A DNA stretch of 32,000 nucleotides from Candidatus Saccharimonadota bacterium (GCA_963698035.1 OY969114.1:1-32000), one strand, 5' to 3'; shown: positions 806-32,000, numbered from the stretch's first letter. The notes: generated by a model not told the origin, from the letters alone. Program-made: numbers and translations.

Positions 806-880
806 ATATGGGACACCTCCTGTATTTCCACTAATGATAGTATTAAATATCATATAGCGAAGAGTATATTTGGGGGTAAT
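784..880 (+). promoter_or_regulatory. Cassette junction module (T-rich box, GGGACACC..TTTCCAC box, TATA-like box, GGGGGT SD-like)
   Basis: Sequence is taagTTTCTTCAATTCTTTTAG atat GGGACACCTCCTGTATTTCCAC taatgatag TATTAAATAT ... GGGGGTaatATG. It is homologous to the modules at 1412, 3645 and 5585. Confidence 0.7.
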
Positions 881-1069
881 ATGCCATCGACTGTTTTTAA
901 ACGCGGAAGATTAGGTGGTCAACTGAGGGCTACAACAGATCCTGCCCTGGCTGCGTCTATGGTTGCAACATCGGCCGCTGTCATAGCCTATCTGGTGTAT
1001 CTGGCCAACGAGGAGGCCAAGAAATTTAAGCGGGACAATCCCGATCTCATGGCCAGCCTTAGAAAATAA
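881..1069 (+). CDS. Small single-pass membrane protein (62 aa), hypothetical
   Basis: Intact ORF with a hydrophobic core (AASMVATSAAVIAYLVYL) and a GGGGGT 4 nt upstream of the ATG. An identical copy sits at 2624-2812. Confidence 0.6.
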   Translation: MPSTVFKRGRLGGQLRATTDPALAASMVATSAAVIAYLVYLANEEAKKFKRDNPDLMASLRK

Positions 1070-1093
1070 TTCTCATAGCCCGGAACACTAGAA

Positions 1094-1414
1094 ATGACAT
1101 ACCGTGATAATATGAATAAAAGTTCAACTATCGCATCCGGAGACACTATACACGCAGAAGATAATCCTGAAAGAGTTAGACCTCTTTTAAGAGATTTTGG
1201 ATCAAGAGTCACGTCTCTTTTAAGAGACTATGGACTAGCAGCAACAATAGTAATTGTTACGACTACCAGTACCGTTGCCGGTGTGATTTATGAACCGGTC
1301 CAAGGTCTACCGCTCAACCCCGTAATCCAGGGAGCAGCAGTGGGATTTGTAGGACTTTTTCTTAGTGGTTTGGGGGCGGTCATTACAAATGCATTCCTAG
1401 AGGGCAAAAATTAA
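1094..1414 (+). CDS. Membrane protein (106 aa, two predicted TM segments), hypothetical
   Basis: ORF lies 24 nt downstream of the 62-aa gene. Hydrophobic stretches are AATIVIVTTTSTVAGVI and AAVGFVGLFLSGLGAVI. The copy at 2279-2599 differs by 1 aa. Confidence 0.6.
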   Translation: MTYRDNMNKSSTIASGDTIHAEDNPERVRPLLRDFGSRVTSLLRDYGLAATIVIVTTTSTVAGVIYEPVQGLPLNPVIQGAAVGFVGLFLSGLGAVITNAFLEGKN

Positions 1415-1512
1415 AACCTTCTTGGTCTTTCTTCAATTCTTTTGGCAAAGGGGACACCCCAATGTTTCCATAATTCATAAATACCTAATAATCATAATGT
1501 GAATGTGTTATT
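1412..1512 (+). promoter_or_regulatory. Cassette junction module
   Basis: Sequence is cttggtcTTTCTTCAATTCTTTTGG caaa GGGGACACCCCAATGTTTCCAT aa TTCATAAATACC, followed by ~30 nt and the ATG at 1513. Confidence 0.7.
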
Positions 1513-1767
1513 ATGGCAGCAACACAAAGCAGATCGGTGCGGCCCCAAAAAATATCAAGATTAATTCGTGAGGGCGAATTACCGTCAGGAAATTTAATGG
1601 ATAAACAACAGGTTATCAAAGAAATAGGTGAAAAAAACTGGGACGCTTTTCTTAAGTTTATGGAGGGCCAAACATTTAAGGTTGATTCCGAAGGACGTGA
1701 GAGCTACCATAGCACCGATGTTCAAAGTTTTCTACATAGACCAAAACCCAGATCTAGCCTTCTTTGA
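1513..1767 (+). CDS. Hypothetical protein (84 aa)
   Basis: ORF is duplicated at 1923-2180. The C-termini differ because of a 1-nt indel (RSSLL* versus RLALFD*). Confidence 0.55.
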   Translation: MAATQSRSVRPQKISRLIREGELPSGNLMDKQQVIKEIGEKNWDAFLKFMEGQTFKVDSEGRESYHSTDVQSFLHRPKPRSSLL

Positions 1768-1799
1768 TTAGATATACTTAGTTTTTCTTCAATTGTTTT

Positions 1800-1894
1800 C
1801 TTTCTTTTGAGGCGATCGCTCTGCTATTGGTTATTTACACGTGGTAACCTAGCATATCAAGACGCCTCAAAAGAAAGAGAAGACCATCTTTACT
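1800..1894. repeat. 95-nt unique centre of the inverted duplication, containing a perfect 15-bp inverted repeat (1800-1814 / 1863-1877) around a 48-nt loop
   Basis: CTTTCTTTTGAGGCG ... CGCCTCAAAAGAAAG read directly. The loop contains CACGTG. An 18-nt unpaired segment (1878-1895) makes the centre asymmetric. Confidence 0.85.
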
Positions 1895-1922
1895 AAAACA
1901 ATTGAAGAAAAACTAAGTATAT

Positions 1923-2180
1923 CTAATCAAAGAGGGCTAATCTGGGTTTTGGTCTATGTAGAAAACTTTGAACATCGGTGCTATGGTAGCTCTCACGTCC
2001 TTCGGAATCAACCTTAAATGTTTGGCCCTCCATAAACTTAAGAAAAGCGTCCCAGTTTTTTTCGCCTATTTCTTTGATAACCTGTTGTTTATCCATTAAA
2101 TTTCCTGATGGTAATTCGCCCTCACGAATTAATCTTGATATTTTTTGGGGCCGCGCCGATCTGCTTTGTGTTGCTGCCAT
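1923..2180 (-). CDS. Hypothetical protein (85 aa), paralog of 1513..1767
   Basis: Near-identical translation to 1513..1767. Confidence 0.55.
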   Translation of the reverse strand: MAATQSRSARPQKISRLIREGELPSGNLMDKQQVIKEIGEKNWDAFLKFMEGQTFKVDSEGRESYHSTDVQSFLHRPKPRLALFD

Positions 2181-2281
2181 AATAACACATTCACATTATG
2201 ATTATTAGGTATTTATGAATTGTGGAAACATGGGGGTGTCCCCTTTGCCAAAAGAATTGAAGAAAAACTAAGAAGGTTTTA
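2181..2281 (-). promoter_or_regulatory. Cassette junction module (mirror of 1412..1512)
   Basis: Minus strand reads cttAGTTTTTCTTCAATTCTTTTGG caaa GGGGACACCCCCATGTTTCCAC aa TTCATAAATACC. Confidence 0.7.
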
Positions 2282-2599
2282 ATTTTTGCCCTCTAGGAAT
2301 GCATTTGTAATGACCGCCCCCAAACCACTAAGAAAAAGTCCTACAAATCCCACTGCTGCTCCCTGGATTACGGGGTTGAGCGGTAGACCTTGGACCGGTT
2401 CATAAATCACACCGGCAACGGTACTGGTAGTCGTAACAATTACTATTGTTGCTGCTAGTCCATAGTCTCTTAAAAGAGACGTGACTCTTGATCCAAAATC
2501 TCTTAAAAGAGGTCTAACTCTTTCAGGATTATCTTCTGCGTGTATAGCGTCTCCGGATGCGATAGTTGAACTTTTATTCATATTATCACGGTATGTCAT
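2279..2599 (-). CDS. Membrane protein (106 aa), paralog of 1094..1414
   Basis: Translation differs from 1094..1414 at one residue (T to A). Confidence 0.6.
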   Translation of the reverse strand: MTYRDNMNKSSTIASGDAIHAEDNPERVRPLLRDFGSRVTSLLRDYGLAATIVIVTTTSTVAGVIYEPVQGLPLNPVIQGAAVGFVGLFLSGLGAVITNAFLEGKN

Positions 2600-2623
2600 T
2601 TCTAGTGTTCCGGGCTATGAGAA

Positions 2624-2812
2624 TTATTTTCTAAGGCTGGCCATGAGATCGGGATTGTCCCGCTTAAATTTCTTGGCCTCCTCGTTGGCCAGATACACCA
2701 GATAGGCTATGACAGCGGCCGATGTTGCAACCATAGACGCAGCCAGGGCAGGATCTGTTGTAGCCCTCAGTTGACCACCTAATCTTCCGCGTTTAAAAAC
2801 AGTCGATGGCAT
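2624..2812 (-). CDS. Small membrane protein (62 aa), paralog of 881..1069
   Basis: Translation is identical to 881..1069. Confidence 0.6.
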   Translation of the reverse strand: MPSTVFKRGRLGGQLRATTDPALAASMVATSAAVIAYLVYLANEEAKKFKRDNPDLMASLRK

Positions 2813-2909
2813 ATTACCCCCAAATATACTCTTCGCTATATGATATTTAATACTATCATTAGTGGAAATACAGGAGGTGTCCCATATCTAAAAGAATTGA
2901 AGAAAACTA
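2813..2909 (-). promoter_or_regulatory. Cassette junction module; begins with the TAG stop codon of the HAD gene
   Basis: Minus strand reads TAG TTTTCTTCAATTCTTTTAG atat GGGACACCTCCTGTATTTCCAC ... TATTAAATAT. Confidence 0.7.
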
Positions 2910-3644
2910 TACGAATCTTAGCAGGTCCCTGAGATCTGATATCTCGGCTATGGTGCGTAGGGTGTCACCAGCATGCTTGTAGCCAATTGTCGGATAGTAT
3001 AAAGAAGCTTCAGTGTCCCCGCCATCGCTAACGAATAGGATATTGCCGCTTTCTATCCTCCATCTTGCTGCTATAGTATCTAGCACTATCTTTTTGTTGA
3101 GATCTCTTTGGTTTTCCCAAGGCTGGCCAGCGCCATTCGGATACGCGTATGTGCTAACATATTGACCTTGCGAATCAAAAACCGTAGTTCTGCCATAAAC
3201 ATTCATGGGAACTGGGCCGACGGAGATAACCGGCCTTAAAAATGCCCGGGGGTGAATTCTATTCGCAACAACTCTTGCGTATATGGTGGGAGAAAACGTG
3301 GCTATGTCAAGACCTACGCCTTCGGCATTCAGCCTCTCGACCACCTCAGATGCATGGTCCTCTAGCGGGGCCGTGTTTGCGGCGCTAACAAAGTCGGAAC
3401 GGCATAGCCCTACATCTTTCGCCGCAGATTCAAGGAAGCCCAGTGACTCCTGAAGACTTATTTTACCTCTTCTGAAAAGAGGGTATACCTCAGGAATGTT
3501 GTGTATTCTTTTCATGGATGACCAAGACGATTTCTCTTTGATTAAAACTCCGTCAAGATCAAATACCACTCTTTTTACATCGGCTTGGCCTACTACCCTC
3601 CGTTCTCTTTCCTGCGCATAGCTCAACATAATCATGATGGACAT
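2907..3644 (-). CDS. HAD-superfamily hydrolase/phosphatase (intact copy)
   Basis: Contains HAD motif I (VVFDLDGVL) and a C-terminal acidic motif (FVSDGGDTE). The TATA box lies only ~9 nt from the first ATG, so the true start may be M4 or M6 (3635 or 3629). Confidence 0.7.
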   Translation of the reverse strand: MSIMIMLSYAQERERRVVGQADVKRVVFDLDGVLIKEKSSWSSMKRIHNIPEVYPLFRRGKISLQESLGFLESAAKDVGLCRSDFVSAANTAPLEDHASEVVERLNAEGVGLDIATFSPTIYARVVANRIHPRAFLRPVISVGPVPMNVYGRTTVFDSQGQYVSTYAYPNGAGQPWENQRDLNKKIVLDTIAARWRIESGNILFVSDGGDTEASLYYPTIGYKHAGDTLRTIAEISDLRDLLRFV

Positions 3645-3724
3645 TTCCAGATATTTATACCTATCCTGGGCGTTTGTGGAAATGCGGGGGTGGCCTTTTT
3701 GCTAAAGGAATTGAAGAAAAACTA
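3645..3724 (-). promoter_or_regulatory. Cassette junction module; begins with the TAG stop of 3722..4630
   Basis: Minus strand reads TAG TTTTTCTTCAATTCCTTTAG caaaa AGGCCACCCCCGCATTTCCAC aaacgcccaggatag GTATAAATATCTGG. Confidence 0.7.
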
Positions 3725-4630
3725 AGAAAGCTTTGATCGTGTCCTTCTTTCATTTGCATACGTTTGTTCAAAAATCGACCTTGCTTCTTGAAGGGTTTGC
3801 GCCTTTATTGCAGCTGGAAAGTGGAACCTCAAAAGGGAAAGTTTCCCAACATCATCTAAGCTTCCGCGCGCTGCCTGTCTTATAGCATCCTTATTAAGTA
3901 CGTCCAGAGGTGTCAACGAGCCACGTACTTCTGCATTAAAACCAAGTCGGGTGAGCTCATTTTCGAGATATTGCGCATGGCCAGCGCCTACTATCACAAC
4001 AACGCAGTGACTTTGTCCTGTCTTGCTTGCAACCGCTGCTATGTTGTCCCTCATCGCAGGCTCCCTTATAAGGTCGGCTTCGCCGAGAAGTCTTGCCTCT
4101 GTCATGCAACCTTGCAGTGCTTCATTAAATGAAGTAGTAGTCCGCAGCGTTTTTATCGCGGTTCTTTTCTCAATATACCTGCTTCTTATCCTTTCGTCAG
4201 TAATGTCGGCGTCTATTGGAATAATTTCAATTCCGGCAGCGCTTAGCTTGATCAATAATTCCATTAATGTTTTGTAATACCATCGAAGTTCTGGTCTTGT
4301 CATATTATTTACGTGCGCCTGGAGCTCCTCTTCTGTGATCTTTGGCATTGCTGCATAAAATGCACGTTTATTACTTGAGCTTTCAAAGCATACGCTTGTA
4401 ATCTCATACTCTTTAGATAGCGATAAGATGTCTGCGTATAAGGCAACAAGGCCTCCGGCACCCTCATTGCCGTGCCTGTCGGGGAATATCACTATTCTAG
4501 GTGCAGCTACCCTTACTAATCCCTTGATACCGGGTTCATCCCTCTTAGGAATCGGAATGGGCTTTGCGCCAATTTCACTAACTAAAGCCGTTCTTACAGC
4601 CGGGCCTCGATCTATTGTTAGATCAGCCAT
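3722..4630 (-). CDS. Tiki/TraB/ChaN-superfamily-like protein (302 aa)
   Basis: N-terminal FPDRHGNE and C-terminal VVVIVGAGHAQY resemble the two His-containing motifs of this superfamily. Recognised by eye only. Confidence 0.4.
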   Translation of the reverse strand: MADLTIDRGPAVRTALVSEIGAKPIPIPKRDEPGIKGLVRVAAPRIVIFPDRHGNEGAGGLVALYADILSLSKEYEITSVCFESSSNKRAFYAAMPKITEEELQAHVNNMTRPELRWYYKTLMELLIKLSAAGIEIIPIDADITDERIRSRYIEKRTAIKTLRTTTSFNEALQGCMTEARLLGEADLIREPAMRDNIAAVASKTGQSHCVVVIVGAGHAQYLENELTRLGFNAEVRGSLTPLDVLNKDAIRQAARGSLDDVGKLSLLRFHFPAAIKAQTLQEARSIFEQTYANERRTRSKLS

Positions 4631-4682
4631 ATCTTCACATTATACTGCGGGACTTCAGATATTTACGCATTTTTCTGCTATT

Positions 4683-5108
4683 CTAATCTCTTAATCTCAA
4701 ACGTCTGAACAAATCGATAGTCTCACCATAAGATAGATGCTCTGGCACGCTCTCCATCTTTGTTAACCCTATTTCTGACAATTCGTATACTTCCTTGCCC
4801 AGCTTCAATGCGTGTATGATTTCCGCGCCCATCCCTGCTAAGACAAATCCTTGAAATCGTGTGTAAACCAACAAACTACACCTTTCGATAATGCCCAAAT
4901 AAAAACCCATATCCCTTATTCCATAGTCTTTTACTGTTGCTGGATTGATTATTGCATAGTCTGGAAAGTGCTGTGCTATGATCTGCACTTGCGCTTTTTC
5001 TTCCTTTGTGCCGTATACCGGTTGTGCGTGCGCGAAATAGACCGTCTTCTCAGCGTTTGCCGGAAGCAGCTTGGCTGCTGCTTCATCCCATAGGCTCGGT
5101 CTTTTCAC
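4683..5108 (-). CDS. Nucleoside 2-deoxyribosyltransferase-like (DUF4406-like) protein, GTG start
   Basis: Pattern is VYFAHAQP ... IIERCSLLVY ... AGMGAEIIHALKLGKEVY, as in NDT-like Rossmann proteins. The start codon is uncertain. Confidence 0.35.
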   Translation of the reverse strand: MKRPSLWDEAAAKLLPANAEKTVYFAHAQPVYGTKEEKAQVQIIAQHFPDYAIINPATVKDYGIRDMGFYLGIIERCSLLVYTRFQGFVLAGMGAEIIHALKLGKEVYELSEIGLTKMESVPEHLSYGETIDLFRRLRLRD

Positions 5109-5173
5109 GTATATAGCGCCTCCAGTTACAGCAGTTAAACCTTTATTCGTATTATTGCCCCCTTTCCGAACGC

Positions 5174-5584
5174 TTACCTTACCAGCTTTCCGGCTTCGGA
5201 AGCAGCACTACCGCCTGGCTGCATTTTACTCAACCGATTCGCATACTCATCTTCAAAAAGCTCTTTCCACTCCTTTCTGCGCTGCATACCCTCCTCTGTC
5301 ACATACCAGCAGGGCTCACCGAGATCCGAAACTGTCAATGGCGCCTTAAGTTCTACTGCCAGCAATCTCTCATTTAACATTTCGTCGAAGCGGACAGAGA
5401 GCTTATGGAGGTTATTAAAAAACCTTTGGCCGCTAGATAGGCCCAAAGAGGCCGCGGCACCCAATATTATCTGTGTCTTATCGCTCAGCTCGCGCAAAAT
5501 CATCAGGTCTGTTATGAGCAATCCCAATAATTCTTGCTCTGAGAGCCTCCGTGCTGGTTTAGGAACTGTTGCGCTTCCCTGCAT
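5174..5584 (-). CDS. Hypothetical protein (136 aa)
   Basis: ORF is preceded by a full junction module with a TATA box. Confidence 0.5.
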   Translation of the reverse strand: MQGSATVPKPARRLSEQELLGLLITDLMILRELSDKTQIILGAAASLGLSSGQRFFNNLHKLSVRFDEMLNERLLAVELKAPLTVSDLGEPCWYVTEEGMQRRKEWKELFEDEYANRLSKMQPGGSAASEAGKLVR

Positions 5585-5680
5585 ATTGCCACAAAAATAT
5601 TCTGTTTGCCCAAATATTTAATATTATCATTTGTGGGAAGCAGAAGTGTCCCTTTAATGAAAGAATTGAAGAGAAACTAA
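5585..5680 (-). promoter_or_regulatory. Cassette junction module
   Basis: Minus strand reads TTAGTTTCTCTTCAATTCTTTC attaa AGGGACACTTCTGCTTCCCAC aaatgataa TATTAAATATTTGGG. No same-strand gene lies upstream of it. Confidence 0.7.
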
Positions 5681-5740
5681 TCGCCTCCTATCCTGTACAA
5701 GTTGCTTAAATACTTTTATCTTGCATTACCTCTGATCTGC

Positions 5741-6316
5741 ATGGAGCTTAGAACAAAAAGATTGGTATTAAGGCGGCCTAGGAAGAATGACCTACCCAAT
5801 CTAGTTAAAAACATAAGCAACATTCGGGTGTCAAAATGGTTGCTTACTGTTCCTTACCCCTATACTATTAAAGATGCACGATGGTACCTGAATCACAGTG
5901 CAAAGAAGTGGGGTGCTAGAAAGAAGACGGGATACGCATTTTTTATAGCCTTGAAAAGCAACAGGCATGTAATTGGTGGATGTGGTATAGATGGGATCAA
6001 CAAAAGTCAGGGTACCGCAGAGGTTGGTTACTGGCTCGGTGAAAAATATTGGCGGAGAGGATACGGAAGCGAAGCTCTTGATGCTATGTTAAAGTTTACT
6101 TTCAACAGCCTAAAATTGAGGAGAGTGTCGGCGCCTATATTTGCTGGTAATCCAAGCTCGGGTAAATTATTGGAGAAATACGGATTCAAAAAAGAGGGAT
6201 TGAAAAGAAAATCTGCCGTGTGCAAAGCCAATGGTAAAATAAGGGACGAGGTTGTTTACGGATTGCTTAAAGAGGAGTGGAAAGCTGACAAGAGAAAAAG
6301 GGATTTATTCTCTTGA
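5741..6316 (+). CDS. GNAT family N-acetyltransferase (RimJ/RimL-like)
   Basis: Contains MELRTKRLVLRRP, GYWLGEKYWRRGYGSEA and GNPSSGKLLEKYGFKKEG. A TATA-like GCTTAAATAC lies ~27 nt upstream of the ATG at 5741. The tracked ORF starts at the TTG at 5702. Confidence 0.8.
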   Translation: MELRTKRLVLRRPRKNDLPNLVKNISNIRVSKWLLTVPYPYTIKDARWYLNHSAKKWGARKKTGYAFFIALKSNRHVIGGCGIDGINKSQGTAEVGYWLGEKYWRRGYGSEALDAMLKFTFNSLKLRRVSAPIFAGNPSSGKLLEKYGFKKEGLKRKSAVCKANGKIRDEVVYGLLKEEWKADKRKRDLFS

Positions 6317-6601
6317 CAAAAGCCTGTACACTTTTATTTGTGTTCCGTAGATGTCCTTGTAGATGCTGTCTTGTATTTTTTCTTGAACAAAGCCGTCCGC
6401 TGCAAGCCTTGGCAAAAGCTTTTCAAGCACGTGTTTCGCTTCTTGATCGTCCATCCCTACATTTATGGAGCACATCGCACGCACAATCTCATGGGAATTT
6501 TTCCACCTTTCAGATAATGCGTTTGGTATCAGGTTCTTATTTTCTAGATCTGAGCCTATGTATGGTCTAGAAGCAACTGCCGTGGGCATATTTTCACTCA
6601 A
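6305..6601 (-). CDS. Hypothetical small protein (98 aa), possible winged-helix fold
   Basis: ORF lies 6 nt downstream of 6608..6970. Its 3' end overlaps the convergent GNAT gene by 12 nt. Confidence 0.4.
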   Translation of the reverse strand: MSENMPTAVASRPYIGSDLENKNLIPNALSERWKNSHEIVRAMCSINVGMDDQEAKHVLEKLLPRLAADGFVQEKIQDSIYKDIYGTQIKVYRLLSRE

Positions 6602-6607
6602 TAATAA

Positions 6608-6970
6608 TTACGGGTTATCCAGTTCGGAACCTATGGCCCTGAGTAATTTTGTGCACGCGGTCTCGGTTTCTGCTGGATACGTAAAACGCGAGGAAAGAAA
6701 TTCATGCACTGCACTCTCGGTTGCCGGCGTTGATTTGAGCTCTGCGGAGAGCATTTCTCCGGTGTGACTTATATCCTCAATAATACTTATTCTTCCATCA
6801 GACAATACGCCAATCGTCAAATCGAACGGTCTTTCTGCACCGGACTGAATTTCTGCGGTCTTTGGAGTTATGCGTACAATAGCAGCGTTGCGATCTGCGT
6901 GCGTGTCAATGCGCAGCTCTACTCCTGGAGTTATTACGGTTCGGCAAGCTGTTACCATTATATCACACAT
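6608..6970 (-). CDS. Hypothetical protein (120 aa)
   Basis: ORF has an upstream TATA (CCAGATATTTAAAGC at 6985-6999 on the plus strand). Confidence 0.45.
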   Translation of the reverse strand: MCDIMVTACRTVITPGVELRIDTHADRNAAIVRITPKTAEIQSGAERPFDLTIGVLSDGRISIIEDISHTGEMLSAELKSTPATESAVHEFLSSRFTYPAETETACTKLLRAIGSELDNP

Positions 6971-7047
6971 AATATAGCGTATTTCCAGATATTTAAAGCC
7001 TATGAATTACAGCAAAGTGGGGGTGTTTTATTATGCTTCTGTACCTT
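6971..7047 (-). promoter_or_regulatory. Partial junction module (G-string box and TATA only, no CTTCAATTC box)
   Basis: Plus strand 7010-7028 reads acagcaaaGTGGGGGTGtt. TTTAAATATCTGG lies upstream of the ATG at 6970. Confidence 0.5.
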
Positions 7048-7536
7048 TTAGACTAGTGTTCTTCGGACCTTCCCTTTGCAAATAGTACCGTTGTGACCGA
7101 TATCATGCAAAGTGTATTGTAGAATATACTCGAAGACCGGAGGCAAAGCGAAACTTGGCACTTCGCACTCCATTTCAAAAGCTTTGGTTTTACAATGGTT
7201 TATGCCATTAACATCAAATCTTATACATTTGTTTAATATCGCTTCAAAAGAAGTTTGTAGCTCCTCCGTTTTATCTGGCATACTGCGTGCTTCCCACGTT
7301 GAGTATGCTTTTTCCAGAAAAGGCATAACTTGCTGTAGCTGCAATCTTGCAATAACTTTCCTCTCCTCAACATCCGCTGCCATTCTCTTATAATCAAGTA
7401 CATTTGTTAGTGTTGATGACTCTGATGGTAAACTTCTGGTTCCCGTTTTCGTCACCATTTTATCGTATTTTAATATTTTAACTGTCTGCAACTGGGATCC
7501 ATCGTGCATTAACTTTTCGTGTGTTAGCGACGACAA
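7048..7536 (-). CDS. Hypothetical protein; true start possibly 7458
   Basis: The ORF overlaps the upstream gene by 59 nt. An internal Met (MVTKTG) at 7458 removes the overlap. Confidence 0.4.
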   Translation of the reverse strand: MSSLTHEKLMHDGSQLQTVKILKYDKMVTKTGTRSLPSESSTLTNVLDYKRMAADVEERKVIARLQLQQVMPFLEKAYSTWEARSMPDKTEELQTSFEAILNKCIRFDVNGINHCKTKAFEMECEVPSFALPPVFEYILQYTLHDIGHNGTICKGKVRRTLV

Positions 7537-7978
7537 ACCTTGCCGTTATTTCGTTTTCACCTGTAACTGAATAGTTTCCTATGGCAATGCTGTCTTTAAA
7601 AGCGAATATCGAGGTATGCATTTTCCTTTTGCCCTCAAAATATTTTCTGATCTCTTTCATTACCCCTTTCAGCTCTCCTTTGTCTGTAAGATCTACGCCG
7701 CTGATGGTGAATGCCATAGTGCCGCCGTGTGTAACCCATTCCTTCCGGCTATTGCTGGAGACCTCATGACCATAATGCATTGTGTATACTTTTGATACAT
7801 GTAGTTTTATATCGCTGTGATCGCTGTTAAAATTCAGCGCGCTTTGCGCAAACCTTTCAGAAATTTCGTCGGCCTGCCGCTTGATACTGTCTGCACTGTA
7901 CTCTACTAGTCCGGGTACGCTCCTTAAGAGCTTCCGTGTCGTAGGGCTTGCCTCTAAATTTTGAGAGATGGTTGACAT
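7478..7978 (-). CDS. Hypothetical protein (166 aa)
   Basis: ORF is preceded by a short junction module and an AT-rich TATA region. Confidence 0.45.
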   Translation of the reverse strand: MSTISQNLEASPTTRKLLRSVPGLVEYSADSIKRQADEISERFAQSALNFNSDHSDIKLHVSKVYTMHYGHEVSSNSRKEWVTHGGTMAFTISGVDLTDKGELKGVMKEIRKYFEGKRKMHTSIFAFKDSIAIGNYSVTGENEITARFVVANTRKVNARWIPVADS

Positions 7979-8037
7979 TTTATCACATTTTAATATTTTT
8001 ACTAGCAGAATTGAAGAAAACTAATATTTTAGTTTTA
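7979..8037 (-). promoter_or_regulatory. Short junction module (T-rich CTTCAATTC box fused directly to the TATA region)
   Basis: Minus strand reads TAA aactaaaata TTAGTTTTCTTCAATTCTGCTAG TAAAAATATTAAAAT gtgataaaATG. Confidence 0.6.
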
Positions 8038-8937
8038 TTGTCTCCTAAAGATATCACCCAGGAGCCTATTCCCAAGTTCGTCATTCCTTCTCAGCGCGCC
8101 TTCCACCAGCTCCAACTCCAGCCCTTCTATCATCTGCTTAATCTCACCTTGCTCTTCGACGCCGCCGAAGGTGATCGTGCCCTTAATCATCTCTTCCATG
8201 AGCCCCGAGAAGTGATTCAAGCTGCTTTTTAGAGTAGTGAAGTCTTTTGCATACTTCGATAGTATTGTGCCCACCTTGTGCATGTCCGGCGTGGGGACAA
8301 GAAGTGTCACAAGCCCTGCCACGTCTATAGGATCCTTGACCCTCGTGCTGTCCAAGGATAGCACAAGCTTCATTGCAAGCAGGGATTCTGTGTCGACCAT
8401 ACGGATCCATTGTTTCGAATATGGAATGACTCCCCTTACGCTATGCTCCGATAATACATCATCTGGCGGCATCAAGAGCCTGTCGCGCCTTTCTACATAT
8501 ACATCGATGTCTACCTCAGTTCCACTTGTGTCTTTGGCCTTTATCTCGTGCTTTTTAAGGATTGGATTGTAATTTATACCCCAACCGTTCTCGTTCGCCA
8601 TTCCCTGAAGTAGGGTCCAGCCGCCCTCTGAAACGGCAACATCTATGTCATGAGACTTCCTCAACCCGCACTTTGCAAATACCGCCCATCCTCCTATGAC
8701 CGCGATCATGGGCATATTGCCGCTGTCAGCCTCGCGCACCTCTTGCCTATTGAAGATCTGAGACATTATTTCTAGGCAGGCGCGTTCTTTTGCGGCATCC
8801 GACGTAACGGCCTGTGAAGCCTTGGCCTTGAGCGCGTTGCCTATCTCCCCTTTTGCGCTTCTAGGCATAATACCAAAAGCAGGCTCTGGGCTTCTGGCTG
8901 TTGTATTTGTTATATCCACCACAATTGGCATAATCAT
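8035..8937 (-). CDS. Nucleotidyltransferase-fold protein, AbiEii/DUF1814-like
   Basis: IGGWAVFAKCGLRKSHDIDVAV fits the GG..(R)xSxDxD minimal NTase motif. ESLLAMKLVLSLDSTRVKDPIDVAGL resembles the AbiEii C-terminal K/D motif. Confidence 0.45.
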   Translation of the reverse strand: MIMPIVVDITNTTARSPEPAFGIMPRSAKGEIGNALKAKASQAVTSDAAKERACLEIMSQIFNRQEVREADSGNMPMIAVIGGWAVFAKCGLRKSHDIDVAVSEGGWTLLQGMANENGWGINYNPILKKHEIKAKDTSGTEVDIDVYVERRDRLLMPPDDVLSEHSVRGVIPYSKQWIRMVDTESLLAMKLVLSLDSTRVKDPIDVAGLVTLLVPTPDMHKVGTILSKYAKDFTTLKSSLNHFSGLMEEMIKGTITFGGVEEQGEIKQMIEGLELELVEGALRRNDELGNRLLGDIFRRQ

Positions 8938-9119
8938 CTACTAATTTAGCGCTGGGGATGATATTTATGCTTATCGAGAGGGTGCGCTACCCGTCGCAGT
9001 TACGGCCCACTCAAGCCATCCCTTACCGCTTCAGTTACCATTTCCTAGCTTATGATGATACTCTCAGCCGTACTCTATTTACCAAAATATTTATGCCTGT
9101 CTAAGAGCATTTGCGGAAA

Positions 9120-9392
9120 CTAATCTTGCAATTTTGCAAGATACTCCTCCCCCTCGCGGGTGATTAGATAGGTCCTTGGAGGATTTTGGCGGGTATACTG
9201 TTCAGGAAATATCTGGTCTGATTCCTTGACGAACCCTCTTCCAACCAACGACTTAAGCGTTTTGCCTAATTCATCCTCTGCTGTGTTTGTAACGTGCCTT
9301 ATGTACTCCGGTGTCTCGCCTGGACTACCGCGCAAGCATTCAAGCACGCGTTCTTCAATAATTCTCGTAGGCATTCTCGTTGTTTGCATCAT
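9120..9392 (-). CDS. Small winged-helix DNA-binding protein (90 aa)
   Basis: ERVLECLRGSPGETPEYIRHVTNTAEDELGKTLKSLVGRGFV has a wHTH-like pattern. TATA box ATATTTATGC is at 9417-9431. Confidence 0.45.
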   Translation of the reverse strand: MMQTTRMPTRIIEERVLECLRGSPGETPEYIRHVTNTAEDELGKTLKSLVGRGFVKESDQIFPEQYTRQNPPRTYLITREGEEYLAKLQD

Positions 9393-9608
9393 ATTATCGC
9401 AAAATCGCTGTGTTTTACGTAATATTTATGCTTATCTTTCATCACAAAAGAATCAAAGAAAAAGTATAATTTTACTAAAGACCCCTATCTGTTAATTTTT
9501 TTCAAACTGAACTTTAATGAATCTTTAGTTAACAATAGTAAGCACCTTAAGATACTTAAGGCTTTGCTATGCACGGGCTTTGCACTTAAAATATGACTTG
9601 CACTTATT

Positions 9609-10253
9609 TTAATCACGGGCCTCTACATGTTGCAGTCCTTCTTGGCTGGGCGCTCCTGTAGACAGGATTCCTGTCGGTCTTCTCTGTTGCTTGAGTCTCC
9701 TTCTTTCATCCTTGCATCTTTCCTTTTGGTATCTAATAGTATCTTTCTCCGATCTAAAGATGCCGCCTTCGTATACACCTCCTGCGGCTTTAAAGACTCC
9801 GTTAAATGTTGAACCATCAGAGCGAGTGACATTTCCGTCCATCTCAATTGCACCATCTACAGTTGTATTAGTAATCACCTTCTGCCCATACGCACTGAGG
9901 CCATGTAACTTCGACTTGACAACCAATACTCCATTAGAAAGGCTGCCTCCATAAACTTCCGACCTCCCTAATATAACTGAGTCTCGATTTTGATTTACAT
10001 CAGACCAAACAAGAGATTCAGAGCCCGGTGTTACTTCATACCATCCTCCACCAGTAAGATTTCTCCTAAGCTGGTGCTCTGAACCGTTAGATTTAAGAAC
10101 AAATGTGGCTACCTTTTCTTCAATAGGTATTCTGGCTACCAGACCGGGTAATTCAAGAGCGGACTGAATGCTACCAATCTGTACGGCTATGGCCCTTTCT
10201 TGTGTTGTAAGGGAGGCGATTGTTAGACAAGTTTGTTGTGTTTTGAATGCCAT
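9609..10253 (-). CDS. Hypothetical protein (214 aa), Gly-rich beta-type repeats and a basic C-terminus
   Basis: ORF with its own TATA box. No family recognised. Confidence 0.45.
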   Translation of the reverse strand: MAFKTQQTCLTIASLTTQERAIAVQIGSIQSALELPGLVARIPIEEKVATFVLKSNGSEHQLRRNLTGGGWYEVTPGSESLVWSDVNQNRDSVILGRSEVYGGSLSNGVLVVKSKLHGLSAYGQKVITNTTVDGAIEMDGNVTRSDGSTFNGVFKAAGGVYEGGIFRSEKDTIRYQKERCKDERRRLKQQRRPTGILSTGAPSQEGLQHVEARD

Positions 10254-10305: not shown

Positions 10306-10369
10306 AGCTTTGCTAATAAACCTTGCTAATTAATTTACTTTGTTAGCAGATTTAATTCTTTATTAGCAG
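10306..10369. repeat. Left terminal inverted repeat plus subterminal TTTATTAGCA-type repeats
   Basis: Copies are TGCTAATAAA (10311-10320), TGCTAATTAA (10324-10333), TTTGTTAGCA (10339-10348) and TTTATTAGCA (10359-10368). Confidence 0.7.
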
Positions 10370-11620: not shown

Positions 11621-12853
11621 CTAAGCTTTAAAAACCTTATCAGAAAGCTCTGGAGTTATCCCAAGCTCATATATCGCACTTATCAAAACTGTTATGTTAT
11701 ATGCTATCAGTTTGCACATTAGCTCGTTGGTCTGCGATACAAAGTTTTTGTTCTTTAGACCATCGCCGAGCTTGGTCTTGATAGCCATATTCGTTGTCTC
11801 TATGTTAGACCTTTTGTGATAATGTTCCATAAATTCTTCTTGTTTGTATTGGAACAAATGGAACATATTACGCCACAAGCGAGACTTACCTCTTGGGTTT
11901 CCTACTGCGTTTGATTTGAAGGGAATGTAAGGCGTTATGCCCATCTCTTCCGCAAGAACGTAGTTAGCTCTTGAGCTATACGCTTTGTCCGCACTAATCT
12001 CTTGCACATTAAATCCATTCTTTGAAGTTGTTTGAAGCAACGAAGGAAAAGATAGCGTATCGTTTTCGTGTTCTGATGTTATCTCAACTGATGTTATCAC
12101 ATTCGTTTTAGTTCCTACGCACAAGTGAGCTTTTAACCAGTGATGCCCTTTGTTCGTTCCATATTTGTTATGGCAATACTCTCCGAACTTCGTGGTTCTA
12201 AATCCAGTGCTATCTATTGCGAACTGGGTCTCAACACTCTTTAAAGGCAACGCTGTAATCTCCAGCAGTTCCTTTAGCAGTGGCGTTATCTCTGGGTCGT
12301 TGAGCAATATGTTTATCACGTTATAATTAGGTGCTTTGCTTATCTGCTCCTTGCCTTGAGCGTTCCTATAAAGCGAATATGCACGTCTGCTTGATAGCTG
12401 GGAATAGACCTTTTGTATTGCACAGAATAAGCCCTCTCTCAAAGGCACTCTTGGTCTTCCTATCACTTGCACTGGCTCATTTATGTTTTGAACCAAGTCT
12501 CTTAGAAGCTCATCAAAGAGCTTTACCTCTTCGTTCTGTGCCTTAGTGTAAGCAGACCAGTTTTGAGGATAGGTTATCCTCTTGGTCGCTGTTATCGTAG
12601 TGCTACCATCTTTATTGACCTGTTTTTCTACTGTGATTTCTACTGCGAATATATGCTTACATTTGACCCCTCTGGTCGCATAATCTCGGCACGTGCATCT
12701 TGACCCATCAATCCTTAGTTCTACGCTATAAGATTGTCTTGGATTAGTCTGCGATGGCACTTGCCATATACCGTTCCTATTGACTATCTGTTTTGTCTGG
12801 GCTATTGCATAGCCCTTTTCTTTTCTCTTTTTTACCAGTTCTACTTGTTGCAT
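11621..12853 (-). CDS. DDE transposase, IS4/IS5 superfamily, with an N-terminal SWIM zinc finger
   Basis: SWIM motif is CTCRDYATRGVKCKH. DDE elements are FAIDSTGF, ISADKAYSS and the Y-x2-R-x3-E-x6-K signature (YHKRSNIETTNMAIK). The stop lies 8 nt from the methyltransferase start. Confidence 0.85.
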   Translation of the reverse strand: MQQVELVKKRKEKGYAIAQTKQIVNRNGIWQVPSQTNPRQSYSVELRIDGSRCTCRDYATRGVKCKHIFAVEITVEKQVNKDGSTTITATKRITYPQNWSAYTKAQNEEVKLFDELLRDLVQNINEPVQVIGRPRVPLREGLFCAIQKVYSQLSSRRAYSLYRNAQGKEQISKAPNYNVINILLNDPEITPLLKELLEITALPLKSVETQFAIDSTGFRTTKFGEYCHNKYGTNKGHHWLKAHLCVGTKTNVITSVEITSEHENDTLSFPSLLQTTSKNGFNVQEISADKAYSSRANYVLAEEMGITPYIPFKSNAVGNPRGKSRLWRNMFHLFQYKQEEFMEHYHKRSNIETTNMAIKTKLGDGLKNKNFVSQTNELMCKLIAYNITVLISAIYELGITPELSDKVFKA

Positions 12854-14526: not shown

Positions 14527-14580
14527 TTTATTAGCAACAATCAGACTTTATTAGCAGGAAGGTAGTTTATTAGCAAAGCT
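14527..14580. repeat. Right subterminal repeats (3 x TTTATTAGCA, 19-20 nt spacing) ending in the right terminal inverted repeat
   Basis: Exact 10-mers occur at 14527-14536, 14547-14556 and 14566-14575. Confidence 0.8.
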
Positions 14581-14589: not shown

Positions 14590-14633
14590 GGCTTTGCTCA
14601 GAAAGTTCGTTCTGCCTCCTTGAAGAAAAACTA
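14590..14633 (-). promoter_or_regulatory. Terminator-side half of the junction module split by the transposon
   Basis: Minus strand reads TAG TTTTTCTTCAAGGAGGCAGAACGAACTTTCTGAGCAAAGCC, starting at the stop codon of 14631..15119. Confidence 0.6.
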
Positions 14634-15119
14634 AACCCTTCTTATTTTAGCAAGATCGCCTTTTTCCTCTAATACCAAATCCGTAACTACGGCGGGCACC
14701 TCTCTTACGTCTTTAACAATGTGTGCTACTGAAACCCTTCTATTACCATCAACGTCAACATAACATTCGGGCGCCTTTCTATCTGCCTTTCTGATCCTGA
14801 GCAAACATATTGGAGCGACCGGGTCGGGTGCGATGACCCTTAAGTCCATTGCGACCTCAAAAACATTCCACCACCTTCGATCTCTGCCTTTTGGCGTAGG
14901 ACTCCAGTTTTCATAATACTTGTCGGCATTGTCTAGTCGTGTGCCCACTATATCTGCCACCGGAACGGGTTGTTCTTTTGGATTTGCCCTTACACGACGA
15001 ACTTCGGGGTTGCTTTCTGAGAATTCGGGATGGTCCTTCTCTATTGCTCTAATAAGCTCTACCATAATCTCATCTATAATGATTATATTCTCGGGCGTCA
15101 GTCTTTGTTTCTTAACCAT
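14631..15119 (-). CDS. Hypothetical protein with a possible ParB/Srx-like domain
   Basis: PICLLRIRK...YVDVDGNRRVSVAHIV...VPAVV resembles the ParB N-terminal DGxxR(R) motif. Weak, by-eye call. Confidence 0.35.
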   Translation of the reverse strand: MVKKQRLTPENIIIIDEIMVELIRAIEKDHPEFSESNPEVRRVRANPKEQPVPVADIVGTRLDNADKYYENWSPTPKGRDRRWWNVFEVAMDLRVIAPDPVAPICLLRIRKADRKAPECYVDVDGNRRVSVAHIVKDVREVPAVVTDLVLEEKGDLAKIRRV

Positions 15120-15436: not shown

Positions 15437-15525
15437 AATACCACATATATGTTGTGGCGTTTCAGATATTTATGCATTTATTTTGGTCGCCTCAAAGCCA
15501 AGGAAAAGAGGGAATTAAAGGAATG

Positions 15526-15597
15526 TGGGCCCGCGGAGAATCGAACTCCGTATCTTCACGTTGTCAACGTGACGTCTTACCAATCGACTACGAGCCC
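15526..15597 (-). tRNA. tRNA-Val (anticodon GAC), no encoded CCA
   Basis: Hand-folded cloverleaf: GGGCTCG TA GTCG-ATTGGTA-AGAC G TCACG TTGACAA CGTGA AGATA CGGAG TTCGATT CTCCG CGGGCCC A (72 nt). Confidence 0.9.
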
Positions 15598-20902: not shown

Positions 20903-22243
20903 TTATCTGGATGGCGGTGGCGGCGTGATTGTACTCTGCTTTGCTTCGGGGGCGATTACATGGCGCGCTTGTTTAAGCCCCCTGTAAATTTCTCCCCATA
21001 TAGTTTCGTCACCCATAAAGTAAGAGTCGTCTATGCCGCTCTCGATTTCTATATCCAGTTTCTTGATGTGCCTTCCCTTAAGCCCAGCTTTCGAGAGTTC
21101 TTCTGGTGTGAAAAAGCTGCTGTATGCAAAGAGCAATTTCTTTCCCAGTAGTTCTACATTCGACATATTGGCCGTGCCATCTATGTCGATGCTCATTATA
21201 CCCGCATTTCTCTTCACCACATCCGGGCTAATTCTGAGCCATTCTTTGGCGAGCAATTTATAAAGTGCCGCGGCATCGTCTTCGGCCATCCCTTTCCTGC
21301 TCTTGACAGCAAGACCGAGTGCATCCTTTAACGCTTTGTTTTCACTATCATTCAACAGCTCCTGCGCCCATGCATTCTCCGTTACGTACTCGTTCATGCT
21401 TACTGTAAATGTCATATCGGTCTTTGTTGATTTTGCCTTCCCGCCCCTCAGCTGCGTCGCAGCTACTGGGACTGAAGCAGCAGCATCAAACACTGATTTG
21501 ACGATCTGACCCACACGGTTCTCCTGCTGCGAGTTTGCATATGCAATGAGAGCATCTTTAATTTCTTCTACTGGGGTTCCACCCCTCTTTTCTTTAACAA
21601 CCCAGTCTCTTATCTTCGATTTGGTTAGCTCGGCAAAAAGGTCATCTATCCTCTGCTTCTCCGGAATAACACTTTTATCGTCAACGAACTGCCCCATTTC
21701 CTTTAGTATGCGCATTGCCAGCTTATCATAAAATATATCGCTGCCTGTTCGGCTTTTCTCTCCAAGGCGTTCGAGATGCCCTGCTATCTTGTCCAACGTA
21801 GCCTCCGAAGCAGTCTCGGTAGTAATGCTAGCGGTATCAATAGACTCTCCCGTCTCCTTTACGGCCCTTTCAGGTCCTCGGATGTTCATTAATTTTTCGG
21901 CGCTGACTCGGCAGTAATCCGCCACCCTCGGTTCAATAACCGCTTTATTTGGGGATTTTAATTTCTGTAAAAGTGAATCTATGTCATCTTTAAATGTGTC
22001 TTTCAGTGTCCCTGCACTCTCTAGGCTCAGGATTTCTTTTACTGTGGTTTCACCCTCCTTTTCTTTAACAGCTACAAACCTCGACGCCCTGACATGTCCT
22101 ATATTCGCCTTTATTGAATCAAGAGAAAGCCTAATATTCGAAATTCTGGCCTGGGCCTTCGCCGTATCGAATGTCACCCTGTCGGCTTCCGCGGGCTTAT
22201 TTGAGCTATTTGCATCCTTAAGGGCGCTTGCCATATTTACCAC
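20903..22243 (-). CDS. Hypothetical protein (446 aa), lower GC than its neighbours
   Basis: Long ORF driven by an island-type promoter. Its stop abuts the convergent stop of 20498..20902 (TGATTA). Confidence 0.6.
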   Translation of the reverse strand: MVNMASALKDANSSNKPAEADRVTFDTAKAQARISNIRLSLDSIKANIGHVRASRFVAVKEKEGETTVKEILSLESAGTLKDTFKDDIDSLLQKLKSPNKAVIEPRVADYCRVSAEKLMNIRGPERAVKETGESIDTASITTETASEATLDKIAGHLERLGEKSRTGSDIFYDKLAMRILKEMGQFVDDKSVIPEKQRIDDLFAELTKSKIRDWVVKEKRGGTPVEEIKDALIAYANSQQENRVGQIVKSVFDAAASVPVAATQLRGGKAKSTKTDMTFTVSMNEYVTENAWAQELLNDSENKALKDALGLAVKSRKGMAEDDAAALYKLLAKEWLRISPDVVKRNAGIMSIDIDGTANMSNVELLGKKLLFAYSSFFTPEELSKAGLKGRHIKKLDIEIESGIDDSYFMGDETIWGEIYRGLKQARHVIAPEAKQSTITPPPPSR

Positions 22244-22358
22244 TTACCCTCTATAATAAGGGGCGTCCCAGATATTTATACCTATCCCGGGCACAGCATA
22301 GGTGCCGAATAACCACTCTTTTGTGGAGAGTGCCGGGTGCATTCGGCTTGCTGTAAAA
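22244..22358 (-). promoter_or_regulatory. Island-type promoter/module copy between rpl11 and the 446-aa gene
   Basis: CCAGATATTTATACCTATCC (22268-22287) is identical over 20 nt to 3647-3666. TTTGTGGAGAGTGCCGGGTGC (22320-22340) parallels TTTGTGGAAATGCGGGGGTGG at 3673-3693. Nested stems are CACTCT/AGAGTG and GCCGAAT/ATTCGGC. Confidence 0.65.
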
Positions 22359-30598: not shown

Positions 30599-32000
30599 AT
30601 GAAAACGATAGGAATAGACCTTGGAACTTCAAACTCCGCGGCAGCGGTGCTTGAGGGCGGAAGCCCCGTCATAATACCGAGCAGCGAGGGCACCTCGCTG
30701 TACGGGAAGGCGTTCCCGAGCTACGTTGCATTCACAAAGGACGGGCAGAGGCTCATCGGCGAGACTGCGAGGAGGCAGGCTGTGGCGAACCCCGAGGGGA
30801 CAGTGACAGCATTCAAGAGGAAGATGGGGACCGAGTACAGATACAAGATATTCGGCAAGGAGTACACGCCACAGGAGCTCTCGGCGATACTGCTGCAGAA
30901 GATAAAGAAGGACGCAGAGGCGTTCCTTGGGGAGGCGATAACAAAGGCGGTCATAACGGTGCCCGCCTACTTCAACGACAACCAGAGGCAGGCTACCAAG
31001 GACGCAGGCCAGATAGCGGGGCTGGAGGTAGTCAGGCTTGTCAACGAGCCCACGGCAGCGGCGCTTGCATACGGGCTCGACAAGGCCGATAGAGGAGATG
31101 AAGATAATGGTCTACGACTTTGGAGGCGGGACCCTAGACGTGACAATCATGGATTTCGGAAAGGGGGTCTTCGAGGTCATGTCGACGAGCGGGGACACGC
31201 AGCTGGGCGGGACCGACATGGACAACGTGATAGTGGACATGCTGCTCAAGGAGGTAAAGGAGAAGCACGGAGCAGACGTGTCAAAGGATCCACAGGCTAT
31301 GCAGAGGCTCAGGGAGGCAGGAGAGAGGGCGAAGATAGAGCTCTCCACGGTGCTCAACTCCGAGATAAACCTGCCCTTCCTTGCGAAGGACGCGAAGGGC
31401 AACCCTGTGAACTTCACCTACACATTCACCAGGGCGAAGCTCGAGGCGCTCGTCGTCCCGATAATAGAGAGATCGGCAAAGTCGGTCATGCAGGCGCTGA
31501 AGGACGCGAAGCTGGAGCCCACCGCACTCGACAAGGTGATACTCGTTGGGGGGCCGACAAGGATGCCGATAGTGCAAAGGTACGTTGAGCAGCTTCTCGG
31601 GAAGAAGATAGAGCGCGGAGTCGACCCGATGGAGGCGGTCGCGCTCGGCGCGGCGATACAGGCTGGTGTGCTCACTGGGGAGGTGAAGGACATAGTCCTG
31701 CTTGACGTCACACCTCTATCGCTCAGTATAGAGACACTTGGAGGCGTAGCGACCAAGATAATCGAGAGGAACACAACCATACCGATAAAGAAGACGCAGG
31801 TCTTCTCCACTGCCGATGATTCCCAGACTGCGGTAGACATAGACATGGTGCAGGGCGAGAGGGTGCTCGCTAAGGACAACGTCGAACTGGGCAAGTTCAC
31901 CCTTACAGGGATACCGCCTGCAAGGAGGGGGGTGCCGCAGATAGAGGTGACCTTCGACATAGACTCCAACGGGATACTGCACGTGACCGCGAAGGACAAG
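30599..32000 (+). CDS. dnaK: Chaperone DnaK (Hsp70), apparent +1 frameshift near 31085-31094; runs off the window end
   Basis: Frame of 30599 gives [14 protein letters not shown]...[20 protein letters not shown]...[15 protein letters not shown]. The +1 frame from ~31092 gives [19 protein letters not shown]...[10 protein letters not shown]...DVTPLSL...[15 protein letters not shown]. Confidence 0.9.

Follow-up and report, generated by a model that had tools for sequence, protein, structure and literature searches.

A repeated module at gene junctions in a tRNA-adjacent island

The DNA stretch analysed here (the window; 32,000 nucleotides (nt), GCA_963698035.1 OY969114.1:1-32000, deposited as Candidatus Saccharimonadota bacterium) carries, in a variable island next to a tRNA-Val gene, a repeated intergenic module of ~55 nt that recurs between unrelated accessory genes. 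In gene orientation, the module reads cTTAGTTTTTCTTCAATTCTTTTAG-N~10-CACCCCC-N2-4-TTTCCACAAAT, with a T-rich box (T-box) followed by a core, and the aligned intergenic regions yield the consensus cTTAGTTTTTCTTCAATTCTTTTAGcAAAggGgaCACCCCCnnnTTTCCACAAAT. It is a conserved bipartite module of double-stranded-DNA type at gene junctions, portable across unrelated genes and genomes, and it sits in variable islands rich in toxin–antitoxin (TA), restriction–modification (RM) and ORFan cargo. The original prediction, made from the window sequence, had described a core of the form GTGGAAAY-N3-GGGGGTG and compared it with an archaeal origin recognition box (ORB). This core is the reverse complement of the 3' half of the module; the larger bipartite element, whose better-conserved half is the T-rich box at the upstream stop codon, had been missed. 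In the alignment, invariant columns cluster in TCTTCAA and TTTCCA, and the linker between them is variable.

Copies were sought with R1, a sequence-only covariance model built from 8 full copies and searched with filters off. The T-rich box AGAATTGAAGAAAAACTAAG gave 6 matches at <=3 mismatches, compared with 0.00 expected, and GTGGAAAYNNNGGGGGTG gave 5 matches, compared with 0.85 expected, a count reached in 0/100 shuffles. The features of the window are as follows.

2218-2271, minus strand: module A, full (R1 58.9 bits, E 2.8e-17), with its T-box at 2249-2272, ORB-like core at 2222-2243 and TATA box at ~2210-2217; after a 106-amino-acid (aa) gene and before an 85-aa ORFan (1923-2180).
2858-2908, minus strand: module B, full (R1 51.4 bits), with its core at 2862-2883 and TATA box at ~2843-2852; the TAG of the box is the stop codon of a HAD-like gene (2907-3644), and a 62-aa gene follows.
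3673-3725, minus strand: module C, full (R1 54.4 bits), with its core at 3676-3695 and TATA box at 3651-3660; the TAG of the box is the stop codon of a 302-aa gene (3722-4630), and the HAD-like gene follows.
5629-5680, minus strand: module D, full but degenerate (R1 44.9 bits), with broken T-runs and the core GGGACACTTCTGCTTCCCAC; no co-oriented gene upstream (a divergent GNAT gene lies there), and before a 136-aa gene (5174-5584).
1887-1916, minus strand: T-box only, F (R1 23.9 bits, E 2.6e-06), after the 85-aa gene, the last of the array.
7998-8021, minus strand: T-box only, E (R1 15.1 bits, E 0.0015), between a 300-aa and a 166-aa gene.
14620-14634, minus strand: truncated T-box TTAGTTTTTCTTCAA (R1 10.6 bits, E 0.037).
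7010-7040, minus strand: decayed core remnant ACACCCCCAC...AATTCATA, recognised by eye.
9107-9118, minus strand: remnant of the core 3' end, TTTCCGCAAATG, from direct reading, right after the stop codon of a 90-aa winged-helix-turn-helix-like gene and followed by a TATA box.
1-1807, no strand assigned: inverted copy of ~1895-3700 with mirror modules at 788-835, 1422-1475 and 1778-1799, a probable fold-back artefact.
15525-15597, minus strand: tRNA-Val(GAC), the boundary between the variable island (1-15.5 kb, ~40% GC) and core genes of ~53% GC.

The core strings reported in the original prediction are all present where it had placed them, and the motif is real; the number of copies had been set too high, there being four independent full copies plus partials. 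Two of its sites, 7010-7028 and 22323-22340, gave no R1 match at E<=10. The remnant at 7010-7040 is 20/27 identical to the core and the B recognition element (BRE) of module A, lies upstream of the TATA box of a 120-aa gene and has no T-box, and the site at 22323-22340, with an identity of only 14/21 counted by eye, is doubtful as a module. For the T-box-only sites, an A/T-rich promoter-like stretch directly follows E, and the TAG of the truncated box at 14620-14634 is the stop codon of the 162-aa gene that adjoins tRNA-Val.

All copies of the module are co-oriented with the flanking genes. Each opens at the stop codon of the gene upstream or immediately behind it, and 5-52 nt separate its end from the TATA box that follows. 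In 11/12 junctions the distance from the stop to the T-box is 0-10 nt, and in four of them (B, C, 14631 and the first copy of L038, a contig described below) the TAG of the T-box is itself the stop codon. The core had been predicted to lie at a fixed position upstream of the TATA box; the measured spacings, which are 5, 5, 5, 11, 11, 17, 18, 38 and ~52 nt, contradict this. Instead, the T-box and the C-string are separated by a near-fixed 14-17 nt, and the C-string and TTTCCAC by 2-4 nt. Because the spacing is near-fixed relative to the T-box and variable relative to the TATA box, the core belongs with the T-box, and not with the promoter. The promoter, GATAGGTATAAATATCTGG, is the generic form of this genome and is also found at core genes (repeat families D5 and D9). 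In the copies with short spacing, CACAAWT occupies the BRE position, and by our own reading it resembles an archaeal BRE.

A promoter outside the island is also similar to that of a module. The promoter of a 446-aa ORFan (20903-22243), at 22266-22292, shares 24/25 positions with the promoter part of module C (3647-3671), a likeness that exceeds the generic promoter consensus. This ORFan adjoins the L11 and Spt5 genes and contains an internal 39-nt direct repeat (21561-21599 and 22032-22070, 87% identity).

Several known classes of repeat were examined and rejected. DNA folding of five copies on the gene strand, three of them also on the opposite strand, gave z-scores of -0.88 to +0.99 and no shared stem. 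The matches of the window to Rfam at the gathering threshold were the two tRNAs only, and the contigs L159, L166 and L167 (see below) had none at E<=1. The absence of a fold above shuffles and of an Rfam match excluded attC sites, repetitive extragenic palindromes (REPs) and structured RNAs. The AATTGAAG tail resembles the end of a CRISPR repeat, but the spacing is gene-sized: copies start 355-2345 nt apart with whole genes between them (repeat family D1), compared with CRISPR spacers of 25-50 nt, and neither a CRISPR array nor its remnant is present. A miniature inverted-repeat transposable element (MITE) or other small non-autonomous transposon was discarded for want of an inverted repeat within the module or at its ends.

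R1 also matched artefactual mirrors of the full modules at the start of the window, where the repeat search placed a 1.8-kb inverted duplication with arms at ~20-1799 and 1895-3668, joined at a short natural inverted repeat (tgaggcg...cgcctca). Positions 1-1807 are probably a fold-back assembly artefact at the contig end. L159, an independent Logan contig that carries the right-arm genes at 100% identity to the window over 3272 nt, does not fold back, and at window ~1808 it runs into unrelated DNA with a PLD-like gene. The left arm is also error-laden (98.26% identical, 18 mismatches, 8 gaps) and splits the HAD-like gene into two open reading frames (ORFs). A frameshift in dnaK (30599-32000) near 31085, where the ORF turns to nonsense after ...AYGLDKA and DnaK resumes in another frame, is either an indel error or a pseudogene, and is a further pointer to an indel-prone assembly. 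A genuine palindrome with converging genes was therefore ruled out by the comparison with L159 and by the arm errors. The mirrored copies at 810-831 and 1450-1471, which lie in the left arm absent from L159 and are not independent, and the convergence of the genes of the two arms on the palindrome centre, both adduced in the original prediction, consequently carry no weight. As a practical result, a fold-back misassembly is flagged at the end of a 777-kb contig.

To the left of tRNA-Val, the island holds small ORFans on the minus strand. Its other genes encode a DNA methylase with an Mrr domain, a DDE+SWIM transposase, DUF488, DuOB, GNAT and a weak HAD-like protein. To the right lie core archaeal genes (RNase Z, NFACT, GGGP synthase, L11, Spt5, Trm5, ScpA/B, GrpE and DnaK). 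The closest named relatives of the island transposase come from Candidatus Micrarchaeales (84% identity) and Micrarchaeota (56%), and the source of the window is Micrarchaeales-like, a DPANN archaeon. The defence-system profiles of PADLOC returned nothing useful for the cassette proteins, and the 85-aa cassette protein is an orphan.

Two further observations concern the island. The products of 5174-5584, 6305-6601 and 9120-9392, as well as of 6263-6520 in L166, resemble small winged-helix DNA-binding proteins, to judge from reading their sequences. The L166 protein has weak MarR_2/HVO_A0261_N matches, and the four are mutually non-homologous by BLASTP. Separately, clusters of TT(T)ATTAGCA at 10311-10368 and 14528-14575 (5 copies compared with 0.41 expected) flank a block consisting of the methyltransferase (MTase), the DDE+SWIM transposase, DUF488 and DuOB. 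The same bracket surrounds a syntenic block in L176, a Micrarchaeales metagenome-assembled genome (MAG), at 8271-8318 and 12644-12701, and the bracketed block may be a composite mobile unit.

Likeness of the core to origin recognition boxes

The published ORB consensus is CTTCCAGTGGAAACGAAAGGGGT (PMC4153887) or GTTCCAGTGGAAAC-AAA----GGGGG (PMC1868953). The resemblance of the core to the right half of an ORB and its G-string, proposed in the original prediction, was borne out: the core reads GTGGAAAY-N3-5-GGGGT with the correct spacing, and this likeness is conserved in all four sources that bear the module. For scoring, a position weight matrix (PWM) was built from ten Methanomassiliicoccales ORBs (PMC4153887 Table 2). 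With its right 16 nt, module C (19.7 bits), the artefactual mirror of C (18.6 bits), A (16.9 bits) and B (12.2 bits) ranked at the top of the window, compared with a shuffle maximum of 13.5 +/- 2.0 (largest 19.6) and with 22-25 bits for real ORBs. In 306 kb of DNA from related loci, 11/14 matches at or above 14 bits were module cores, and no canonical ORB was found.

With the full 22-nt PWM, in contrast, the cores scored <=9.5 bits, where real ORBs reach 20-35 bits and shuffles have a maximum of 12.0 +/- 2.2; on this non-significant result a full ORB was rejected. The likeness to the ORB profile thus holds for the right half and G-string, whereas the complete box has no significant match, the latter being the outcome that the original prediction had said would speak against it. 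The left TTCCA half is lacking, as had been noted: (C)ATTT, AATT or ATTA stands in its place in all copies, and the dyad TTCCA-N-TGGAA is absent.

The comparison motif was chosen after the fact, and the copies of the module are homologous, so the ORB-half match counts as roughly one event. The likeness is real, and we treat it as a lead. Orc1 proteins make few base contacts and read DNA mainly through its shape (PMC3089459); in Sulfolobales, promoters are regulated by an Orc1 that is not an initiator (PMC9738581). Together these findings make binding of the core by Orc1 plausible. An Orc1/Cdc6-like binder is a possible reading of the core.

Occurrence in other archaeal sources

The module was also found between unrelated genes in three other Micrarchaeota-type sources. 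L001 (VFSW01248841.1, a metagenome contig matched by the strict pattern) has three junctions between three unrelated ORFans and starts inside a core. L038 (Candidatus Micrarchaeota MAG JOPF183) has a T-box after VapBC and a full module at the contig end; it was the sole true match of a T-box scan of GTDB, the others being mostly chance matches in AT-rich bacteria. The strict module pattern had 0 matches in GTDB genomes. That two of the module-bearing contigs, L001 and L038, break inside the module is expected of a multicopy repeat.

The third source, L166/L167, was reached through a homologue of the HAD-like protein (45% aa identity) and contains two full modules, which precede MazE-PIN and a NUDIX-like gene respectively, as well as a junction that has the T-box only. 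The HAD homologue in L166 keeps the core and TATA box upstream, which, at 45% protein identity, argues for constraint or homogenisation. PemK, HicA and an RM system are encoded in the L166 island as well, which further contains a fragment of a Y1 transposase and the same insertion sequence (IS) family.

A second junction-box family, TTAGAAATTCCAACTAAATCTTATTCT, was observed in L166, where its four copies (8743-8773, 9492-9522, 9913-9943 and ~10752) take the role of the T-rich box in the array. One of them is fused to an ORB-like core and TATA box before the HAD homologue, and the family is absent from the window.

The cargo of the cassettes comprises ORFans, VapBC, MazE-PIN, NUDIX and HAD. In an all-vs-all BLASTP of the ORFs of the module-bearing loci, the cassette genes were non-paralogous, only HAD and MTase being common to the loci, and a shared cassette-encoded regulator was ruled out on this ground. 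Found beside unrelated genes in several genomes, the module thus behaves as a regulatory cassette that is portable.

Past the last box of the array, a non-coding flank is conserved between L159 (3230-3600) and L166 (10780-11150), with 68% identity over 140 nt (E 2e-6); in the true sequence, given by the continuation of L159, it follows T-box F. The flank contains no ORF, has no Rfam match and gives a weak consensus fold from two sequences; it could be an array terminus, a leader or an RNA of unknown kind. As the flank is homologous and the cassette content differs, the arrays of the window genome and of L166 end at homologous sequence with different genes.

No match to window 1846-8940 was found by blastn in phage and plasmid collections, and four pattern scans of IMG/VR gave only chance matches or none; a viral or plasmid origin of the module was rejected on these results. 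No earlier description of the module was found in the literature searched.

A proposed portable junction cassette and its alternatives

We favour, with moderate confidence, the reading that the module is a portable junction of terminator, protein-binding box and promoter for accessory-gene cassettes, analogous to the promoter early stem-loop (PeSL) elements of phages; it is best described as an archaeal, hairpin-less form of a composite intergenic regulatory cassette. It would delimit accessory-gene cassettes in the tRNA-Val-adjacent variable island of a Micrarchaeales-like archaeon. Archaeal RNA polymerase terminates at oligo-T. The T-rich box TTAGTTTTTCTTCAATTCTTTTAG, which abuts or supplies the upstream stop codon, would most likely act as such a terminator through its T5 and T4 runs. 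About 15 nt further on, the conserved double-stranded box CACCCCC-N2-4-TTTCCACAAAT, whose other strand reads as the ORB right half and G-string, would most likely be bound by a trans-acting protein encoded outside the cassettes, candidates being an Orc1/Cdc6 paralogue or a winged-helix factor acting beside the BRE and TATA box. An ordinary BRE/TATA promoter at a variable distance would then drive the next gene. The copies would probably also serve as homology patches for the gain, loss and shuffling of genes, as PeSLs may do in T4-type phages.

The closest parallel is with the PeSLs of T4-type phages (PMC2839356, PMC4122927). These too are small repeats that combine a terminator and a promoter, lie between co-oriented genes that are small and mostly ORFans, and occur in hyperplastic regions with unrelated flanking genes; they have been proposed as homology patches for gene shuffling. 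The module matches this arrangement as a conserved composite of terminator and promoter, roles read from its sequence, between ORFans and with unrelated flanking genes. It differs from PeSLs in residing in an archaeal chromosomal island, in lacking a stem-loop (the proposed terminator being an oligo-T box), in having an additional conserved ORB-like box, and in placing the TATA box outside the conserved block at a variable distance. Recombination between copies, in the form of indels and mini-circles, is a further trait of PeSLs. Halovirus HF2 has two classes of intergenic repeats (I, 58 bp; II, 29 bp; PMC8707807) that are also archaeal, of similar length, promoter-associated and conserved among relatives. 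They are viral, however, and contain the promoter themselves, whereas in the module the best-conserved parts precede the promoter and adjoin the stop codon of the gene before.

Integron attC arrays and clusters of attC sites lacking integron-integrases (CALINs), archaeal ones included (PMC9668308), share with the module the tandem co-oriented short ORFs, often TA or ORFan, each with a repeat that can hold the stop codon and that is more similar within a lineage. In contrast to attC, the module has no single-stranded-DNA hairpin and no R''/R' core sites, and each of its cassettes has its own promoter; no IntI was found in the window island, L166, L038 or L001. ORBs and mini-ORBs have GTGGAAAY followed 3-5 nt on by GGGG(G)T, as does the module in all four sources; the module, however, lacks the left dyad half, and its sites are tied to gene junctions and are not arranged round an unwinding element, in inverted pairs or beside orc1. 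The non-initiator Orc1-2 of Sulfolobales, a regulator of the DNA-damage response (PMC9738581), provides a precedent for an Orc1-family protein at promoters and not at origins. The module core likewise lies just upstream of the BRE and TATA box, but the motif and the lineage differ from those of the Orc1-2 promoters.

Several observations weigh against the portable-junction reading, the first two being the main ones. The variable distance between core and TATA box sits poorly with a classical operator or activator site. In L001 copy 2 and at L166 6230, a distance of 12-15 nt with no TATA box separates the T-box from a start codon, where an efficient terminator would silence the gene. The BLASTP comparison gave no candidate regulator common to the module-bearing loci. 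R1 found no module in a further ~25 Micrarchaeales-like loci, to which HAD homologues (L162-165 and L180) and neighbours of the IS transposase (L176-179, L181-189, L194 and L197-201) had led, and the module is therefore restricted to a lineage or to islands. Presence/absence polymorphism broken inside modules was not found. The only alternative assemblies of the same strain, L159-L161, keep one gene order. Finally, it is from sequence that we infer the terminator, operator and shuffling roles alike.

The features of the array can also be read in terms of mobility. A site-specific recombinase of an unrecognised, integron-like but hairpin-less capture system might cut in the T-box or core and insert or excise cassettes. 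Such a system would fit the co-oriented short ORFs, TA pairs included, each with a repeat behind it that begins at the stop codon or within it, the lone T-box at which the array ends, the T-box-only and core-only junctions that look like half sites, and the non-coding flank conserved at the array end in two genomes; archaeal integrons and CALINs, moreover, exist (PMC9668308). We nevertheless consider it unlikely, given that the imperfect palindrome and single-stranded fold essential for attC (PMC9668308) are missing, that direct reading of the alignment gives no GTTRRRY/RYYYAAC core on either strand of the consensus, that neither block shows the symmetry of binding arms, and that each cassette has its own promoter; no integrase or recombinase was found in the window island, L166, L038 or L001. 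It is doubtful, if somewhat easier to entertain, that the module is selectively neutral or selfish repeat DNA, which transfer between related archaea has recently spread and which has no function beyond the generic promoter it carries; it could be a serially duplicated intergenic spacer or a non-autonomous element of small size. The patchy distribution, the many decayed fragments in the island, the contigs that break at copies and the transposases in the same islands agree with this, but terminal inverted repeats and target-site duplications are absent, the two blocks are conserved beside a linker and flanks that vary freely, the core is kept upstream of HAD homologues with only 45% protein identity, and the copies hold strictly to one orientation and placement with respect to stop codons and promoters.

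The remaining two explanations concern what the module itself might do, and both are less probable still. The module could act as RNA, either as an unstructured U-rich element of the 3' untranslated region (UTR) or as an antisense RNA from the quasi-symmetric TATA box. The T-box does lie within the likely 3' UTR, and archaeal TATA boxes can fire both ways. The lack of a fold above shuffled controls on either strand and of an Rfam family makes this improbable, as does the position of the core beyond the first T5 run, which would usually leave the core out of the upstream transcript. Least probable of all, the cores would be genuine Orc1/Cdc6 replication sites, forming an origin, either dispersed or derived from a plasmid, or else buffering the initiator level as a datA-like titration cluster. 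The ORB right half and G-string are conserved with correct spacing in four sources, a T-rich stretch is adjacent and Orc1 is reported to bind T-rich single-stranded DNA (PMC8287685), ORB clusters in Haloarcula negatively regulate an origin (PMC4010727), and the island is horizontally acquired DNA beside a tRNA gene. The complete ORB PWM is non-significant, however, with the TTCCA dyad half absent from every copy. Once the fold-back is removed, the copies lie in a single orientation, 0.6-2 kb apart with genes between, and no inverted ORBs bracket an AT-rich unwinding element. No orc1/cdc6 was seen among the window ORFs examined, and a strict tie to gene boundaries is unexpected of an origin. 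These points agree with the original prediction that the locus is not an origin.

A bolder form of the portable-junction reading, which we regard as unlikely to be correct, would have an ORB-derived Orc1/Cdc6-binding half-site fused to a T-rich box as a hairpin-less ~55-bp element that both controls and mobilises cassettes in Micrarchaeales. This would be an archaeal counterpart of integrons and PeSLs, with its junctions read by an initiator paralogue or a new recombinase.

In the tiny genomes of DPANN archaea, the gain, loss and expression of accessory genes are poorly understood; the module would provide a handle on these processes. It packages unrelated genes (toxin–antitoxins, ORFans and small enzymes) as ready-to-express units, recurs in several Micrarchaeota lineages and would offer a sequence tag by which to find variable islands in metagenomes. 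If an Orc1/Cdc6 paralogue does bind the box, the precedent of an initiator acting as a regulator in Sulfolobales would extend to DPANN archaea.

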